Source: an uncultured Rickettsiales bacterium (GTDB lineage Bacteria > Pseudomonadota > Alphaproteobacteria > Rickettsiales > UBA8987). Taken from it: a stretch of 64,000 nt of DNA. A program made the translations under genes and the position numbers. Of this stretch, positions 2,487 to 35,605 are shown piece by piece. Position 1 is the first letter of the stretch, and every line of letters begins with the position of its first letter. The notes beneath the pieces are model-generated. The model had not been told where the DNA came from and ran no database searches. It saw nothing but the letters and a program-made list of their open reading frames with translations. Location: the NCBI GenBank assembly GCA_964588995.1, contig CAZPQM010000010.1, positions 910-64,909 on the forward strand, read 5' to 3'.

Positions 2487-3527
2487 ATGACCCCCACCGA
2501 ACCGATTGAGCACCAAATCCCAACGCCTGAGCTAGTGGGGATTGGCCACGCGATTGTCGATATCCTTGCCTATAAGGATAAACGTTTTCTGGAAAATAAC
2601 GGCTTTACGCTTGGCTCGATGCAGTTGATTGATGACGAGCAGGTGGCGAAGCTCACGCCGCTCATGGGCGCGGCAACAGAGTGTTCCGGCGGTTCTGCCG
2701 GCAACACCCTCGCCGGTTATGCCATGCTCGGCGGGCATGCGGCGTTTATCGGCAAGGTGCATAGCGACAAGATGGGCGAGATTTTCATTTCTGATATGGA
2801 GCGCGTCGGCGTGCATTATGCCGGGGTGAAGGAAAGTACGGGCGCCCCCACCGCGCGCAGTCTGGTAATGGTCACCGAAGAACCCGACCCGTATGGCGGG
2901 CAACCGGATGTGGAACGCACGATGGCAACCTATCTCGGGATTGCCGGTCAGTTGCGTGCAGAAGATATCGACGACGATGTGATAGCCTGCGCGGAAATCT
3001 TCTATATCGAGGGCTATCTCTGGGACGACGAAGCGACGAAAGACGCCATCCGTCACGCGATTGAGGTCGCGAAACAGAACAACACCAAGGTCGCCTTTAC
3101 GCTCTCCGATCCGTTTTGCGTCGAGCGGCATCACGCGGAATTTCTCGAACTGGTGAAAGAGGATGTTGATATTCTGTTTGCGAATGAGCATGAAATCGAG
3201 GCGCTCATCGGCGAAGGCAGCGACTTGAAGAAAATCCTTCACCGCACCGGGCAGATGGTGGAAACCGCCGCCATTACCCGCTCGGAGCGGGGCTCGTATG
3301 TGGTGCATCAGGGCGAGGTACACGGTATCGATCCGGTAAAAGTTGACAGCGTGTTTGACGTAACCGGCGCGGGAGATCTCTATGCATCCGGCTTTCTTTA
3401 CGGCTATATTAACGGCTTCGAGATGCCAAAAGCCGGGCGGCTTGCGAGCCTATGCGCCTCTGAAGTGATCCAGTATCTCGGCGGGCGACCGGTCACCAAA
3501 CTGCCGAAATTGTTTGAACGGTTATGA
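2487..3527 (+). CDS. PfkB-family carbohydrate/nucleoside kinase (adenosine-kinase-like)
   Basis: 346-aa ORF with the N-terminal GIGHAIVDI motif, GGSAGNT, and the C-terminal DVTGAGDLYASGFLYG PfkB signature. Confidence 0.8.
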   Translation: MTPTEPIEHQIPTPELVGIGHAIVDILAYKDKRFLENNGFTLGSMQLIDDEQVAKLTPLMGAATECSGGSAGNTLAGYAMLGGHAAFIGKVHSDKMGEIFISDMERVGVHYAGVKESTGAPTARSLVMVTEEPDPYGGQPDVERTMATYLGIAGQLRAEDIDDDVIACAEIFYIEGYLWDDEATKDAIRHAIEVAKQNNTKVAFTLSDPFCVERHHAEFLELVKEDVDILFANEHEIEALIGEGSDLKKILHRTGQMVETAAITRSERGSYVVHQGEVHGIDPVKVDSVFDVTGAGDLYASGFLYGYINGFEMPKAGRLASLCASEVIQYLGGRPVTKLPKLFERL

Positions 3528-3544
3528 TGCCTACCACTTTTACT

Positions 3545-3903
3545 GTCATCCTGAGCGGAGAGCGTTTCGCTCGCAGTCGAAGGATCTTATGAAACAGTAT
3601 TATGTATATATTCTTACCAATTATGCGTGTACCGTTCTGTATACGGGGGTCACTAACAATTTAGAACGAAGAATGTTGGAGCATATCCAGAAACGTGTTC
3701 CAGGTTTTACTCAAAAATACAATGTAACCCGCTTGGTATACTTTGAAGATAGCGTAAGTATTGAAGCTGCGCTTGCCCGGGAAAAACAAATTAAAGGATG
3801 GACACGCAAAAAGAAAATCGCCCTGATTGAAGGGGTTAATCCGAACTGGGATGATTTGACTGCAACGTGGTTTAAAGATTCTTCGGCTACGCCTCAGAAT
3901 GAC
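3545..3903 (+). mobile_element. palindromic element carrying a GIY-YIG ORF between its arms (candidate autonomous copy of the 96-bp hairpin family)
   Basis: The left arm gtcatcctgagcgg..gtcgaaggatctt (3545-3588) and right arm aagattcttcgg..cctcagaatgac (3875-3903) are inverted repeats at both their outer and inner ends. The same arms, joined by a 14-nt loop, form the ORF-less copy at 33168-33263. Confidence 0.6.
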
Positions 3904-3924
3904 AAGATGGAAGAGTACGCATGA
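3589..3924 (+). CDS. stand-alone GIY-YIG nuclease family protein (UPF0213-like, ~110 aa)
   Basis: From the ATG at 3589: MKQYYVYILTNYACTVLYTGVTNNLERRMLEHIQKRVPGFTQKYNVTRLVYFEDSVSIEAALAREKQIKGWTRKKKIALIEGVNPNWDDL, the full small GIY-YIG pattern. The track ORF start at 3514 is an upstream read-through of the left arm. The stop overlaps the ampG ATG (ATGA at 3921-3924). Confidence 0.85.
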   Translation: MKQYYVYILTNYACTVLYTGVTNNLERRMLEHIQKRVPGFTQKYNVTRLVYFEDSVSIEAALAREKQIKGWTRKKKIALIEGVNPNWDDLTATWFKDSSATPQNDKMEEYA

Positions 3925-5297
3925 CCGGCTTTGGTGCCTATCTGAAACCGAAACTGATCGTCGTGCTGCTGCTCGGCTTTTCGAGCGGTTTGCCGCGGCT
4001 GCTGATTGCTTCTACCTTAAGTGCGTGGCTTTCGGATAGCAATATTGAGCGTGCAGCGATCGGACTGTTTGCCTATGTTTCCCTGCCGTACAGCTTCAAT
4101 TTTCTTTGGGCACCGTTTATCGATAATCTGCGCTTGCCGCTCTTTTCAAGGCTGGGTCGGCGCGTTGGCTGGGGTATTTTTGCGCAAATGATGGTCGCAG
4201 GCAGCCTGATCTGGCTCGGTCTTAGTGACCCGGCGATAGCGCCCGCGATGACGGCGCTAGCCGCACTATCGGTCGCGTTCTTCTCCGCCTCGCAGGATGT
4301 GGTGATTGATGCCTACCGGACGGAGTATCTCGAAAGCGCCTATTACGGGCAGGGGGCGGCCAATGCGGTGTTCGGCTATCGGCTCGGGATGCTGGTAGCG
4401 GGTGCGGGTGCGCTCTTTTTCGCCGATCATATTCCGTGGACGCAGGTCTATTTCATCATGGCGGCCTTCATGCTGGTTGGTATGATTACGCTGCTGCTGT
4501 CGGGTGAGCCGATAGTTGCAACGTCATCGCCTGAATCGCACAGCGATTCTAGGGCGATCTCCACCAACGCAGCACATGATTCCCCTAGAATTGCCACTGG
4601 CAATTCAGGGAATGACGTTAAAGCAAACTTCTTCCACCATGCCGTGATTGAGCCATTTACCGAGTTCGCCCGTGCGCATCCGCATTGGTTGCTGATTCTA
4701 CTGCTGATCGCCTTCTACCGTATGCCGGACGGGTTTATCGGCTTTATGGCGACGCCCTTTATGCTGGATATCGGCTTTAGCAAAACCGAGGTGGCGAGCA
4801 TCAGCAAACTCTACGGCTTTATCGCGATGACGATCGGCACGATTGCAGGCGGGGCGCTGGTCGGTAAATGGGGGCTATGGCGCGCCTTGTTCTGGTTCGG
4901 CATCATGCAGGTGCTCGCCAATCTGTCGTATCTGTTGCTGGCTAGCTATGGCGCAGAGATCGCGTTGTTGATGGTAACGATTTCACTCGATCAGCTGGCA
5001 GGCGGTCTGGTGACCGCTGCTGCGATTGCCTATATGATGAAGCTCTGCGATCCGCGCTTTACCGCGACGCAATATGCATTGCTGGCAAGCCTTGCCTCCC
5101 TTGCGAGCATATTGCTTGCCGGTGCGGCCGGTTGGGTCGCCGATCAGTATGGCTGGCCGGCGATGTTCAGCCTGTCGGCCTTTATGGGCCTGCCCGCGCT
5201 CGCGCTCCTGCTGCGGTTGAAGGGGCATGTGTCATTTGAAACGCCAGACAAAGCTGAAGGTGAGGAAGCGCGCATCGTCAATCGGGATAACGGTTAA
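3921..5297 (+). CDS. ampG: AmpG-family muropeptide MFS permease
   Basis: 458-aa polytopic ORF. The N-terminus LLGFSSGLPRLLIASTLSAWL and the multi-TM layout are typical of AmpG. The central loop contains a 32-codon repeat insertion. Confidence 0.8.
   Translation: MTGFGAYLKPKLIVVLLLGFSSGLPRLLIASTLSAWLSDSNIERAAIGLFAYVSLPYSFNFLWAPFIDNLRLPLFSRLGRRVGWGIFAQMMVAGSLIWLGLSDPAIAPAMTALAALSVAFFSASQDVVIDAYRTEYLESAYYGQGAANAVFGYRLGMLVAGAGALFFADHIPWTQVYFIMAAFMLVGMITLLLSGEPIVATSSPESHSDSRAISTNAAHDSPRIATGNSGNDVKANFFHHAVIEPFTEFARAHPHWLLILLLIAFYRMPDGFIGFMATPFMLDIGFSKTEVASISKLYGFIAMTIGTIAGGALVGKWGLWRALFWFGIMQVLANLSYLLLASYGAEIALLMVTISLDQLAGGLVTAAAIAYMMKLCDPRFTATQYALLASLASLASILLAGAAGWVADQYGWPAMFSLSAFMGLPALALLLRLKGHVSFETPDKAEGEEARIVNRDNG
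4522..4617. repeat. 96-bp palindromic element inserted in-frame in ampG
   Basis: cgtcatcgcctgaat (4522-4536) is the inverted repeat of attcagggaatgacg (4603-4617) with 2 mismatches, and inner gattctaggg / ccctagaatt also pair. The element encodes ..SSPESHSDSRAISTNAAHDSPRIATGNSGND.. in the central loop. Confidence 0.65.
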
Positions 5298-5307
5298 GCG
5301 TTTATAA

Positions 5308-5457
5308 CGTCAACGCGAACGCTGTGCCGCGATCTCGGGCCGCAGCATTTCGCAAGAGATTGCCACGCGGCTTTGTCACTCGCAATGACAGACAACGGGT
5401 CATTCTGAAGACCGGAAGATCCGTTGCCGTAACTGCTATGAAGCTCCTCAGATCAAG
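5308..5457. repeat. two adjacent palindromic elements filling the ampG-phoB intergenic region
   Basis: Element 1 (5308-5389) is cgtcaacgcgaacg..gcgatctc // gagattgccacgcgg..ctcgcaatgac. Element 2 (5399-5457) is gtcattctgaagaccggaagatcc .. gaagctcctcagatcaag, a degenerate copy of the gtcatYctga / tcagRatgac family. Confidence 0.55.
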
Positions 5458-32684: not shown

Positions 32685-33740
32685 ATGGAGCAGTTGCCTA
32701 CTATTACCCATATCCACGCCGTACTCGTCACCTATCGGCCGGATCCGGCAGTTACGGATCGGCTGGAGGCAACCCATAAGCAGGTGGAAAAACTCATAAT
32801 TATAGACAATGCTTCCGATGCGGCAACCGTAGAAAGGCTGCAAACCTATGCGGCACAGCATGAGAAAACGGTGGACCTTATCCTGAACGAGCATAATAAA
32901 GGCCTCGCAGCTGCGCAGAATCAGGGCATCCGCTACGCGCTGGAGCATGGCGCGGACTGGATATTGCTGCTGGATGATGACTCCACCCCAGCCGAAGCTA
33001 TGGTGCAGATATTATTGGATTTCCTGCCCCGGCGTGGCGACGGTGGCCCTCAAGGCAAACCAACCGCCCTGCTGGCTCCGCATATAATCCAGCCCGACAG
33101 CCCGCACCCGACGCGTTATGTCGTACCGAGGGGTAAGCTCGGCTTTCGGCGAGTGCATTTTAGTGGCCGTCATTCTGAACGAGGCGCAGCCGAGTCGAAG
33201 AATCTTCCTCCTGACCAAGTAAGATCCTTCGATTCCGTGCAAGCGCGCTTCACTCAGGATGACAACGAGCAGAACACCCTCTACCCGACAACCGTCATCG
33301 CCTCCGGCTCGCTGATCCATGCGGATGTGCTGCGGGAAATCGGGCTGATGCGGGAGGATTTTTTTATCGACTATATCGATACGGAATTTTGTCTGCGTCT
33401 GCGTAAGCATGGCTACCCTATCATTGTGGTGCGTGATGCTGAACTGACGCACCATATTGGCGCTAAGCAGGCCCATGCGCTGGGTGTGGTCACCTCCAAC
33501 CATAGCGCAAAACGCCGCTATACCATCTTCCGCAACCGCTTCATCGTCTGGAAACAGTATCATCGCTCCTCCCCACACTATGTTCTCTATGACGCGATGG
33601 CAGCGTGTTATGATCTCTTCCGCATTCTTGCTTTTGAGCAGCAAAAACGTAGTAAGCTAGGCGCCGCTTTAAGGGGTTTATGGCATGGGGTACGCGGCAA
33701 AATGGATTTTGTCCCTTACATATTGTTAAAAAATGAATAG
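32685..33740 (+). CDS. family 2 glycosyltransferase (rhamnosyltransferase-like)
   Basis: VLVTYRP, IIIDNASD, GLAAAQNQG and LLLDDDS (DxD) motifs. It carries a 32-codon repeat insertion at aa 162-193. Confidence 0.8.
   Translation: MEQLPTITHIHAVLVTYRPDPAVTDRLEATHKQVEKLIIIDNASDAATVERLQTYAAQHEKTVDLILNEHNKGLAAAQNQGIRYALEHGADWILLLDDDSTPAEAMVQILLDFLPRRGDGGPQGKPTALLAPHIIQPDSPHPTRYVVPRGKLGFRRVHFSGRHSERGAAESKNLPPDQVRSFDSVQARFTQDDNEQNTLYPTTVIASGSLIHADVLREIGLMREDFFIDYIDTEFCLRLRKHGYPIIVVRDAELTHHIGAKQAHALGVVTSNHSAKRRYTIFRNRFIVWKQYHRSSPHYVLYDAMAACYDLFRILAFEQQKRSKLGAALRGLWHGVRGKMDFVPYILLKNE
33168..33263. repeat. 96-bp hairpin element (ORF-less relative of the GIY-YIG element) inserted in-frame in the GT2 gene
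   Basis: Left arm gtcattctgaacgagg..gtcgaagaatctt (33169-33206), 14-nt loop, right arm aagatccttcg..cttcactcaggatgac (33221-33263). Position 33168 is codon position 1 and the length is exactly 32 codons, encoding RHSERGAAESKNLPPDQVRSFDSVQARFTQDD. Confidence 0.7.
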
Positions 33741-33859: not shown

Positions 33860-35605
33860 ATGACAGACGCATTGGATATGAACACGCTGCTGAGCGCGAA
33901 TAGCTGGCCGTTTCAGGAGGCAAAAAAGCTCAAAGAGCGTATCGAAAAAACACCGCCGGAAAAAGGCTATGTGCTGTTTGAAACCGGCTACGGCCCTTCC
34001 GGCCTGCCGCATATCGGCACGTTCGGCGAAGTGTTCCGCACGACTATGGTCCGTCAGGCCTTTGCGCGGATTTCCCACTATCCGACCCGGCTGATCGCCT
34101 TCTCGGATGATATGGACGGTTTGCGTAAAGTTCCGGATAACGTGCCAAACCCGAAGCTACTTGAGGCAAATCTGGGCAAGCCACTCACCGAAGTGCCCGA
34201 CCCGTTTGAGCAATATGACAGCTTCGCCGCGCATAACAACGCTAAGCTTCGTGAGTTTCTTGATCAGTTCGGCTTCGCCTATGAATTCAAAAGCGCAACG
34301 GAATGCTACCGCTCCGGTGAGTTCGATGAGGCGCTACTGGCCGCCCTGAAGCAATATGACGCTATTATGAAAATTATGCTGCCGACGCTCGGAGAAGAAC
34401 GTCAGCAAACCTATTCGCCCTTTATGCCGATTGACCCCGAAACGCGGCAGGTCTTACAGGTCAAAACCTTAGAGACGCGACCCGAACAAGGTACGATTAT
34501 ATATGAGCACCCTGAACACGGGCCAACCGAAACCAAAGTCACGGGCGGCGCCGTCAAACTGCAATGGAAACCTGATTGGGGCATGCGCTGGGCGGCGCTG
34601 GGTGTCGATTATGAAATGCACGGTAAGGATCTAACGCCATCGGTGGTGGTGTCGAGCAAGATTGCACGTGTGCTGTTGAAAGAGATGTATACTCGTAACT
34701 CCCCCTTGACGGGGGAGCCTGAGAATGCGGATGCATTGTCAGGTGGGGGTGGTATTATCCAAACCCACACCCCCCCTCCTGCATCTAAGATGCAGACTCC
34801 CCCGCAAGGGGGGAGTTACACCCTACCCGAACCGCCACTGACCTACGTCTATGAAATGTTTTTGGATGAGAAGGGCGAGAAAATTTCCAAATCCAAAGGC
34901 AACGGCATCAGTCTGGAGGATTGGCTGAGTTACGGTACGCCGGAAAGCCTTGCACTCTATATGTTCAATAATCCGCGCAAGGCCAAACGGCTGTATTTCG
35001 ACGTGATCCCTCAGCATGTCGATGAATATCTGAAACATCTGCAAGCGGTTGACCCCGAGAATCATGTGAAGCTGCTGCTGAATCCGGTCTGGCATATTCA
35101 TAACGGTGAGGTGCCGGAGGACGCAGTACCGATAACTTTCAGCCTGCTGCTCAACCTCGCAAGCGCGTGCAACCCGGAAGATAAATCGGTGCTCTGGGGC
35201 TTTATTACGCGCTATCAGCCGGACGCTATGCCGGAAACGCATAAACTGCTCGATGAGCTGGTGGAATATGCGATTGCGTACTATGAAGATTTTGTGAAAC
35301 CGCATAAGGAATATCACACGCTCTGCGACAAAGGCCGCGCGATCATGGAAGATATGAAGGACCGGCTACGCAAGGTTGCTGATCCGAATGATCCGGCAGA
35401 ATTGCAGCAAGTGGTGCTGGATACGGCAAAAGCGCATGGTTTTGAAAAAGACACGATGCGTGATGCCTATAAGCTGCTGTACCGCACCCTCTTCGGGCAG
35501 GAATCCGGGCCGCGCATGGGGAGCTTCATCGCGCTTTACGGGGTCGAGGAAACAATCGGGCTGATAGACGAAGCGCTCGCGCGGACCAACGATGAAGCGG
35601 CGTAA
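33860..35605 (+). CDS. lysS: lysyl-tRNA synthetase, class I
   Basis: FETGYGPSGLPHIGTFGEV (HIGH-type) and GEKISKSKGNG (KMSKS-type) motifs with class I LysRS organisation. A ~45-50-aa repeat-derived insertion lies ~25 aa upstream of the KISKS loop. Confidence 0.9.
   Translation: MTDALDMNTLLSANSWPFQEAKKLKERIEKTPPEKGYVLFETGYGPSGLPHIGTFGEVFRTTMVRQAFARISHYPTRLIAFSDDMDGLRKVPDNVPNPKLLEANLGKPLTEVPDPFEQYDSFAAHNNAKLREFLDQFGFAYEFKSATECYRSGEFDEALLAALKQYDAIMKIMLPTLGEERQQTYSPFMPIDPETRQVLQVKTLETRPEQGTIIYEHPEHGPTETKVTGGAVKLQWKPDWGMRWAALGVDYEMHGKDLTPSVVVSSKIARVLLKEMYTRNSPLTGEPENADALSGGGGIIQTHTPPPASKMQTPPQGGSYTLPEPPLTYVYEMFLDEKGEKISKSKGNGISLEDWLSYGTPESLALYMFNNPRKAKRLYFDVIPQHVDEYLKHLQAVDPENHVKLLLNPVWHIHNGEVPEDAVPITFSLLLNLASACNPEDKSVLWGFITRYQPDAMPETHKLLDELVEYAIAYYEDFVKPHKEYHTLCDKGRAIMEDMKDRLRKVADPNDPAELQQVVLDTAKAHGFEKDTMRDAYKLLYRTLFGQESGPRMGSFIALYGVEETIGLIDEALARTNDEAA
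34695..34819. repeat. composite palindromic element inside lysS, translated in-frame
   Basis: The outer units gtaa-ctccccc-ttgac-gggggag (34695-) and ctccccc-gcaag-gggggag-ttac (-34819) are each hairpins and are inverted repeats of one another. Further hairpins lie between them (cctgagaatgc/gcattgtcagg, ctgcatct/agatgcag). Confidence 0.55.

Follow-up and report, generated by a model that had tools for sequence, protein, structure and literature searches.

An in-frame inverted pair of CGTC-tagged hairpins in ampG of an uncultured Rickettsiales bacterium, and the genomic linkage of its hairpin type to genes for Ssn-type GIY-YIG nucleases

INTRODUCTION

The closest described relatives of the DNA element considered here are the CGTC-tagged repetitive extragenic palindromes (REPs) of Di Nocera, De Gregorio & Rocco (2013, BMC Genomics 14:522; PMC3733652), which include Neisseria dRS3, the Rickettsia repeats RPE-4 and RPE-6, and the Micavibrio CGTC-1 family, with RPE-6 and RPE-4 being equated with CGTC-1 and CGTC-4. 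Our element is a 96-nucleotide palindromic segment lying in frame within ampG, the gene for a muropeptide transporter, in a 64,000-nucleotide stretch of an uncultured Rickettsiales bacterium (GenBank assembly GCA_964588995.1, contig CAZPQM010000010.1, positions 910 to 64,909), referred to below as the window. The CGTC REPs are characterized by an AT stem base, a CCA tail, occurrence as dimers, and an alphaproteobacterial bias, and the four published families have stems of 8 to 9 bp and loops of 4 to 5 nt. Intragenic dimers encoding 20 to 30 residues were described in the same study, and no dedicated transposase was known to its authors (PMC3733652).

Two other bodies of work bear on the locus. 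Chenal et al. (2025, Nat Commun 16:2388; PMC11893778) generalized the Neisseria NTS repeat, CGTCATTCCCGCGMAVGCGGGAATCYRG, to a set of Ssn-related motifs (SRMs) that flank ssn genes, and showed that cleavage of single-stranded DNA by Ssn proteins takes place beside the SRM hairpin. NTS repeats are seldom intragenic (2%) (PMC11893778), whereas the family described below is found repeatedly in coding frames. The Rickettsia palindromic elements (RPEs) are in-frame insertions in genes (Ogata et al. 2000, 2002), and in the account given of them in a review of MITEs, the miniature inverted-repeat transposable elements (PMC10969869), they resemble the AmpG element in being palindromic repeats that lie in frame in conserved genes and add a conserved peptide at a site compatible with the fold. 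By that account, RPE-1 is about 150 nt long and resides in Rickettsia, whereas the AmpG element has 96 nt and resides in an uncultured alphaproteobacterium other than Rickettsia, and the two are likened here by behavior, not by consensus sequence. Among the papers searched, none names both "Rickettsia palindromic" and "GIY-YIG."

Further parallels are offered by MITEs and by REPs arranged as bacterial interspersed mosaic elements (BIMEs) together with their REP-associated tyrosine transposases (RAYTs). These share with the present family multicopy hairpins, inverted pairs, and a nuclease gene with the repeats on either side of it. The REP/BIME tag is GTAG, and RAYT is an HUH tyrosine transposase, whereas here the tag is CGTC and the nuclease is of the GIY-YIG type.

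RESULTS

Two hairpin modules in inverted orientation make up the ampG element. An earlier sequence-only reading of the window had described the element as a 96-bp palindrome with 15-nt inverted repeats at its ends, carrying 2 mismatches, and with a further inner pairing. Both pairings stand: the terminal 15-mers differ as CG versus TC, CGTCATNNCCTGAAT matches both termini with 0 mismatches (on the plus strand at 4522 and on the minus strand at 4603 to 4617), and GATTCTAGGG pairs with CCCTAGAATT with one mismatch. The whole element reads CGTCATCGCCTGAATCGCACAGCGATTCTAGGGCGATC-TCCACCAACGCAGCACAT-GATTCCCCTAGAATTGCCACTGGCAATTCAGGGAATGACG, with CGTC at both of its outer ends and a CGTCAT leader orienting each hairpin (Table 1). 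The fold of the region has a free energy of -49.5 kcal/mol (z = -7.3), which none of 200 dinucleotide shuffles equaled.

A palindromic stretch of 96 nt is thus real, but the conserved structure consists of two separate stem-loops, at 4522 to 4559 and 4578 to 4617, and not of one hairpin. In an alignment of 16 copies from this genome, the two-hairpin structure had 92.2% of its cells paired, compared with 82.8 ± 0.9 in shuffled alignments, along with 46 compensatory cells against 15 and a covariation score of 0.309 against 0.143; on none of these three measures did any of 500 shuffles come up to the observed value. A single end-to-end hairpin of 96 bp was also considered as the conserved structure and rejected, since it was 80.6% paired, compared with 80.3% in shuffles (190/500), and gave no excess covariation. 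Because the local hairpins covary and the end-to-end hairpin does not, we take the unit to be a module of the form CGTC-AT-stem-loop-stem-AT-C and the element to be an inverted pair of such modules, which face outward on either side of the spacer. RNAalifold likewise yielded two distinct stem-loops from the 16-copy alignment, closed by four outer CGTC/GACG pairs.

The modules have stems of 12 to 15 bp; when folded, they show 14 to 15 pairs, a bulge of 2 nt or 1 nt, and a loop of 3 nt. Within the alignment, the tag columns are well kept (G in 13/16, T in 15/16, and C in 15/16 copies), as are the AU and UA pairs at the stem base, which occur in 15/16 copies at columns 5-42 and 6-41 and in 16/16 at columns 77-113 and 78-112. 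The tail that follows the stem is CCA in 8/16 copies and CTC or CTT in 6/16, the AmpG copy having CTC. The family resembles the CGTC REPs in its CGTC or TGTC tag, in the A-T and T-A opening of the stem, and in occurring mostly as inverted dimers with spacers of 20 to 100 nt; about half of the copies carry a short CCA-like tail. It resembles SRM/NTS repeats in the order of CGTCAT leader, hairpin, and ATC, in the bracketing of ssn genes, and in the outer part of the 3' module, CGTCATTCCC...GGGAATC, which is the same in the Neisseria NTS/dRS3 repeat (NTS sequence taken from PMC11893778).

Table 1. Features of the window at and around the ampG element (positions are those of the window)
Feature	Position	Strand	Description
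Upstream flank module of ssn	3544..3586	+	TGTC-ATCCTGAGCGGAGAGCG-ttt-CGCTCGCAGTCGAAGGAT-C; sister hairpin subfamily
ssn-like GIY-YIG nuclease gene	3589..3924	+	111 aa; PF01541, E=3.7e-15
Downstream flank module of ssn	3877..3904	-	TGTC-ATTCTGAGGCGTAGCCGAAGAAT-C
ampG	3921..5297	+	Muropeptide transporter of the major facilitator superfamily (MFS), 458 aa; TIGR00901, PF07690
Inverted dimer of two CGTC-tagged hairpin modules	4522..4617	+	96 nt; in frame, AmpG residues 201-232 = SSPESHSDSRAISTNAAHDSPRIATGNSGND
5' module of the dimer	4522..4559	+	CGTC-ATCGCCTGAATCGC-aca-GCGATTCTAGGGCGAT-C; stem-loop with 2-nt TA bulge; -18.1 kcal/mol alone; pairs backed by compensatory changes
Spacer of the dimer	4560..4577	+	18 nt, TCCACCAACGCAGCACAT; not conserved among copies
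3' module of the dimer	4578..4617	-	CGTC-ATTCCCTGAATTGCC-agt-GGCAATTCTAGGGGAAT-C; -18.8 kcal/mol alone; backed by covariation
Second dimer of the same superfamily	33168..33263	+	96 nt; ssn-flank hairpin type; a different frame is open, RHSERGAAESKNL...TQDD

The dimer is an insertion in the central loop of AmpG. The host protein is a clear AmpG, scoring 464.2 bits against TIGR00901 (curated cutoff, 350) over residues 7 to 431, with a match to PF07690 as well, and the dimer contributes 32 stop-free codons to an intact open reading frame (ORF) of 458 codons. The placement in the central loop that had been proposed from the sequence is correct, residues 201 to 232 falling in the loop between transmembrane helices 6 and 7 (TM6-TM7), in the linker that joins the two six-helix halves of the protein. 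AmpG was found in 27 of 31 relatives, and the match was usually interrupted at query residues ~200 to 240. Alignment with orthologs, which that reading had suggested as a check, indicated an insertion: the segment is absent from AmpG of related genera, and the ~32 residues by which the window's AmpG exceeds its aligned homologs coincide with the dimer. None of eleven AmpG orthologs from the same family and order carries the element (two have other, unrelated loop inserts), and the TM6-TM7 loop is short in 18 of the 23 closest homologs. Among 5.8 billion proteins, the closest AmpG homolog is only 56% identical. The boundary of the insertion is ambiguous by 1 nt.

Some loop insert is present in 5 of 24 aligned AmpG sequences, which marks the loop as a permissive site. 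Homologs with unrelated TM6-TM7 inserts, some of them G-rich and repeat-like, include L014:5610-5800 (the P0002 contig), P0016, and P0023. In addition, a distant AmpG that is 52% identical (L013:616-760, a Logan contig of P0011) has a CGTC-type dimer of another kind in this loop, beginning 9 nt past the codons of a conserved Glu-Pro pair, compared with 10 nt in the window, that is, within 1 nt. This near-identical insertion point may reflect parallel insertion, a target preference, or selection for a permissive site.

In the AlphaFold model of AmpG, built on the alignment of homologs, the mean pLDDT (predicted local distance difference test) value is 86.1. Values stay below 50 over three or more consecutive residues nowhere but at 202 to 229, a segment that is devoid of secondary structure and lies between helices 184-194 and 230-252. 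We hold with high confidence that the 32 extra residues would be translated as a disordered cytoplasmic loop and that AmpG would still work. A predicted tryptic peptide from the segment is, for example, AISTNAAHDSPR.

The family is multicopy and has many hairpin types. An iterated nhmmer search of the whole 2.06-Mb assembly recovered 16 to 17 full-length relatives of 86 to 111 nt plus ~7 partial or chimeric ones, with the AmpG dimer as the top scorer (74.5 bits). A genome-wide census of the termini, also suggested by the sequence-only reading, agreed that further copies exist, CGTCATNNCCTGAAT occurring 8 times and YGTCATNNCCYGAAT 24 times, compared with 0 for each in five Markov-2 controls. 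The two observations that the reading had named as speaking against it, a lack of other copies in the genome and the same loop sequence in AmpG of related genera, were both not made. Within the 64-kb window only, the terminal motif was counted 5 times against 1.9 expected, not clearly beyond chance. The proposal of a subfamily with its own internal sequence also holds, the hairpin type CCYGAAT...ATTMYAGGG being represented by at least 16 full copies in this genome. Pairwise identity between copies is 67 to 68% in the modules and 24% in the spacers, the latter equal to the random level.

Looking beyond this hairpin type, a structure-aware scan found 224 GTCAT-hairpin-ATC modules, compared with 41 to 59 in Markov controls, and 35 inverted module pairs, compared with 0, the hairpin sequences being diverse. 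Simple motif counts are raised as well, at 4422 versus ~3400 in Markov-2 controls for GTCAT and 1489 versus ~975 for CGTCAT. These motif counts suggest that CGTC-tagged modules number several hundred in this 2-Mb genome, across many types of hairpin. The window also holds strong palindromes of another, GC-rich class at 1857 to 1952 and 34675 to 34825 (CCCTCACCC...GGGTGAGGG, with CCCCC/GGGGG hairpins), each open in one frame.

Across the GTDB genome collection, stretches with the AmpG-type hairpin (pattern GTCATNNCCYGAAT..ATTMYAGGGNNATC) number at least 118, almost all of them from uncultured Alphaproteobacteria labeled Rickettsiales, Micavibrio, or simply Alphaproteobacteria. It is present in 17 of the 101 genomes of the order.

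Other genes carry the element in the same reading frame. In carB of this genome, an AmpG-type dimer of 96 nt lies in frame exactly between the positions of Escherichia coli CarB (carbamoyl phosphate synthetase [CPS]) residues 505 and 506. This carB (C18:17718-21830, plus strand) encodes 1370 aa, compared with the usual ~1073, and has at least five in-frame insertions; residues 989 to 1092 form a complete DUF559 domain (a Vsr-like endonuclease; PF04480, E=9e-38) within the second ATP-grasp domain, bordered by GC-rich repeat peptides. In cysNC (C1:255973-258123, minus strand), a chimeric copy composed of one ssn-flank-type module (RHPERAQRVEGS) and one AmpG-type module (SPRIGRADSGND) makes a clean in-frame insert of 38 residues between residues 192 and 193 of the CysN/EF1A homolog. 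In another genome (L111), an AmpG-type dimer lies inside a gene for an HscA-like chaperone, and in one genus of the same family the element is found inside LepA, an amine oxidase, and a CysG-like protein. A search with the peptide profile added DNA polymerase I (PolA), RecO, an APH-type kinase, and a GlcD-like oxidase.

All of these genes share one coding frame, SSPESxSDSRAI...DSPRI..NSG(N/H)D. The cases from the peptide search are biased toward that frame; the four from the DNA search in verified genes (AmpG, CarB, CysN, and HscA of L111), which are not, have the same frame. The frame is fully open in only about one quarter of 106 elements, and the other frames are open about equally often. 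Of the three frames open in the AmpG copy, it has the greatest hydrophilicity (mean hydropathy of -1.15, compared with -0.27 and +0.70) and encodes a hydrophilic peptide rich in Ser, Pro, Asp, and Gly.

The sequence-only reading had also suggested comparing intragenic with intergenic copies for enrichment of lengths divisible by three. In other genomes, a raw long-ORF criterion gave 4/6, compared with 33/101 for the rest, where five of the six long ORFs are probably spurious and only the HscA-like one looked genuine. Intergenic dimer lengths are even modulo three (33/35/33). The four verified coding copies, of 96, 96, 108, and 114 nt, are all multiples of three; this is expected from survivorship and is uninformative on mechanism.

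Modules of the family bracket ssn genes. Directly upstream of ampG in the window lies an ssn-like gene with a module on either side, and its TGA stop overlaps the ampG start codon (ATGA). The sequence-only reading had noted an end signature shared with a GIY-YIG-associated family, and the resemblance is genuine: CGTCAT..CCTGA ends are common to the element and to the repeats around this GIY-YIG gene 600 bp upstream of it, whose layout, GTC-AT[hairpin]AT-C, is the same while the hairpin differs. The C-terminal tail of the Ssn protein, DSSATPQND, is encoded by the downstream module, in the DS..ND frame of the coding insertions. The gene lies between pfkB and ampG, and the three genes look cotranscribed. 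Since pfkB directly abuts ampG in a relative (L014), the module-ssn-module cassette is itself an insertion. A second ssn-like gene of this genome, at C1:259517-259786 and ~1.4 kb from cysNC, has a dimer beside it.

Modules of the AmpG type itself directly bracket GIY-YIG genes in other genomes (L083, L097, L099, L052, G026:C48, G046:C25, and G027:C3). Within the order, 17 genomes hold the module, and 14 of these have an ssn homolog, compared with 30 of the 84 that lack the module (Fisher p=8e-4).

DISCUSSION

The AmpG element belongs, with its long stems, to a class that is already described, and its behavior is of a known sort; it is not a new kind of element. We consider it probable that it is a gene-less inverted dimer of the CGTC REP/SRM class, carried by AmpG as a tolerated passenger, and that its family is tied to the Ssn nucleases. 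The dimer is inserted into the linker between the AmpG halves with the frame kept, as 96 nt without a stop. We have high confidence that the AmpG copy would be a tolerated passenger, like the Rickettsia palindromic elements. With moderate confidence, we propose that Ssn-type GIY-YIG single-strand nucleases may generate or maintain the family, that Ssn would act on single-stranded DNA by recognizing the module in its folded form and cutting beside the CGTC tag, and that the AmpG pair would correspond, minus the nuclease, to the module-ssn-module cassette upstream. The module pair and Ssn could then be viewed as analogous to REP/BIME and the RAYT transposases.

A number of observations weigh against this explanation. 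The stems of the published CGTC REPs are 8 to 9 bp long, compared with 12 to 15 bp and a conserved 2-nt bulge here, and these long bulged stems put the AmpG family outside all four published families. The degenerate SRM pattern, HGTCWYN(0-2)YYVSBRHN(0-5)WNVSBRGN(0-2)RNCYNB, has no match in positions 4501 to 4640 or in the ssn cassette (genome-wide, it has 15 matches, compared with 5 to 11 in controls), so that the SRM assignment was based on the architecture of the modules and their physical association with ssn genes. Neither ssn gene of this genome is flanked by the AmpG-type hairpin, both having sister types; the cognate enzyme may have been lost, or the shared flanks may be all that recognition depends on. 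The role shown for Ssn in Neisseria is the restriction of transforming single-stranded DNA, and to our knowledge Ssn has never been shown to mobilize anything. Finally, the target-site duplication of MITEs is not present in AmpG-type copies, no direct repeat being found in the flanks of 16 of them, and with copies ~68% identical and spacers random, there is no sign of recent movement.

Some of these observations would also fit an old and inert relic, inserted by some other transposase, by slippage, or by recombination, that has no partner enzyme now and whose link to Ssn is mere co-occurrence. The divergence of the copies, the flanks free of duplications, the sister hairpins around this genome's ssn genes, and the lack of a dedicated transposase for CGTC REPs (PMC3733652) all speak for such a relic. 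Neutral decay, however, should erode the modules as fast as the spacer, yet the hairpins remain 92% paired through compensatory changes, and the hairpin type is conserved over many genera and physically brackets ssn genes in at least seven genomes. We judge an inert relic to be improbable. The same stable fold, placed exactly between two six-helix bundles, could instead point to a role in the mRNA, as a target for RNase III or RNase E or as a translational pause between the transporter halves that aids membrane insertion, in which case the copy would be kept for regulation; roles at the RNA level have been proposed for REP dimers (PMC3733652). This is very unlikely, given that the element is mostly intergenic and is also found in the unrelated cytoplasmic enzymes CarB, CysN, HscA, and PolA, that AmpG orthologs manage without it, and that Rfam and a terminator and promoter scan of positions 3400 to 5400 returned nothing at the AmpG dimer, neither a family match nor a terminator-like tail.

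A reading of the 32 residues as adaptive for AmpG, for instance as a docking or regulatory loop, is to us scarcely credible. The hydrophilic frame is always the one used, and the peptide motif is conserved, as an adaptive loop would lead one to expect, but the same peptide occurs in many unrelated proteins and is predicted to be disordered, its conservation tracks the DNA hairpin with its compensatory base changes and not a protein fold, and the unrelated inserts in the same loop of other AmpG homologs mark a permissive site.

Returning to the tolerated passenger tied to Ssn nucleases, a more far-reaching version can be raised tentatively, though we think it rather doubtful. In that version, the Ssn nucleases would be the long-missing enzyme that creates, spreads, or homogenizes CGTC REPs, including the protein-coding RPE-4 and RPE-6, the modules would be under selection even inside essential genes, and in-frame copies such as that in AmpG would be live recognition sites instead of dead passengers. 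The maintenance of stems by compensatory changes while spacers drift is offered as a sign of such selection on the modules. If this were true, live Ssn sites in coding DNA could have consequences for how the genes concerned are replicated or repaired, or for DNA uptake there.

The analysis joins three literatures, on RPE-like coding repeats, on CGTC REPs, and on Ssn nucleases, that the papers found do not connect. It documents a long-stem CGTC REP/SRM subfamily that is missed by the published pattern, yet brackets ssn in many uncultured Alphaproteobacteria. The ampG dimer is a further example of selfish hairpin DNA that a protein tolerates in a surface loop, in this instance the interdomain linker of an MFS transporter, and the genome that carries it is unusually rich in in-frame insertions (AmpG, CarB, and CysN), making it a natural catalog of permissive sites in conserved proteins.

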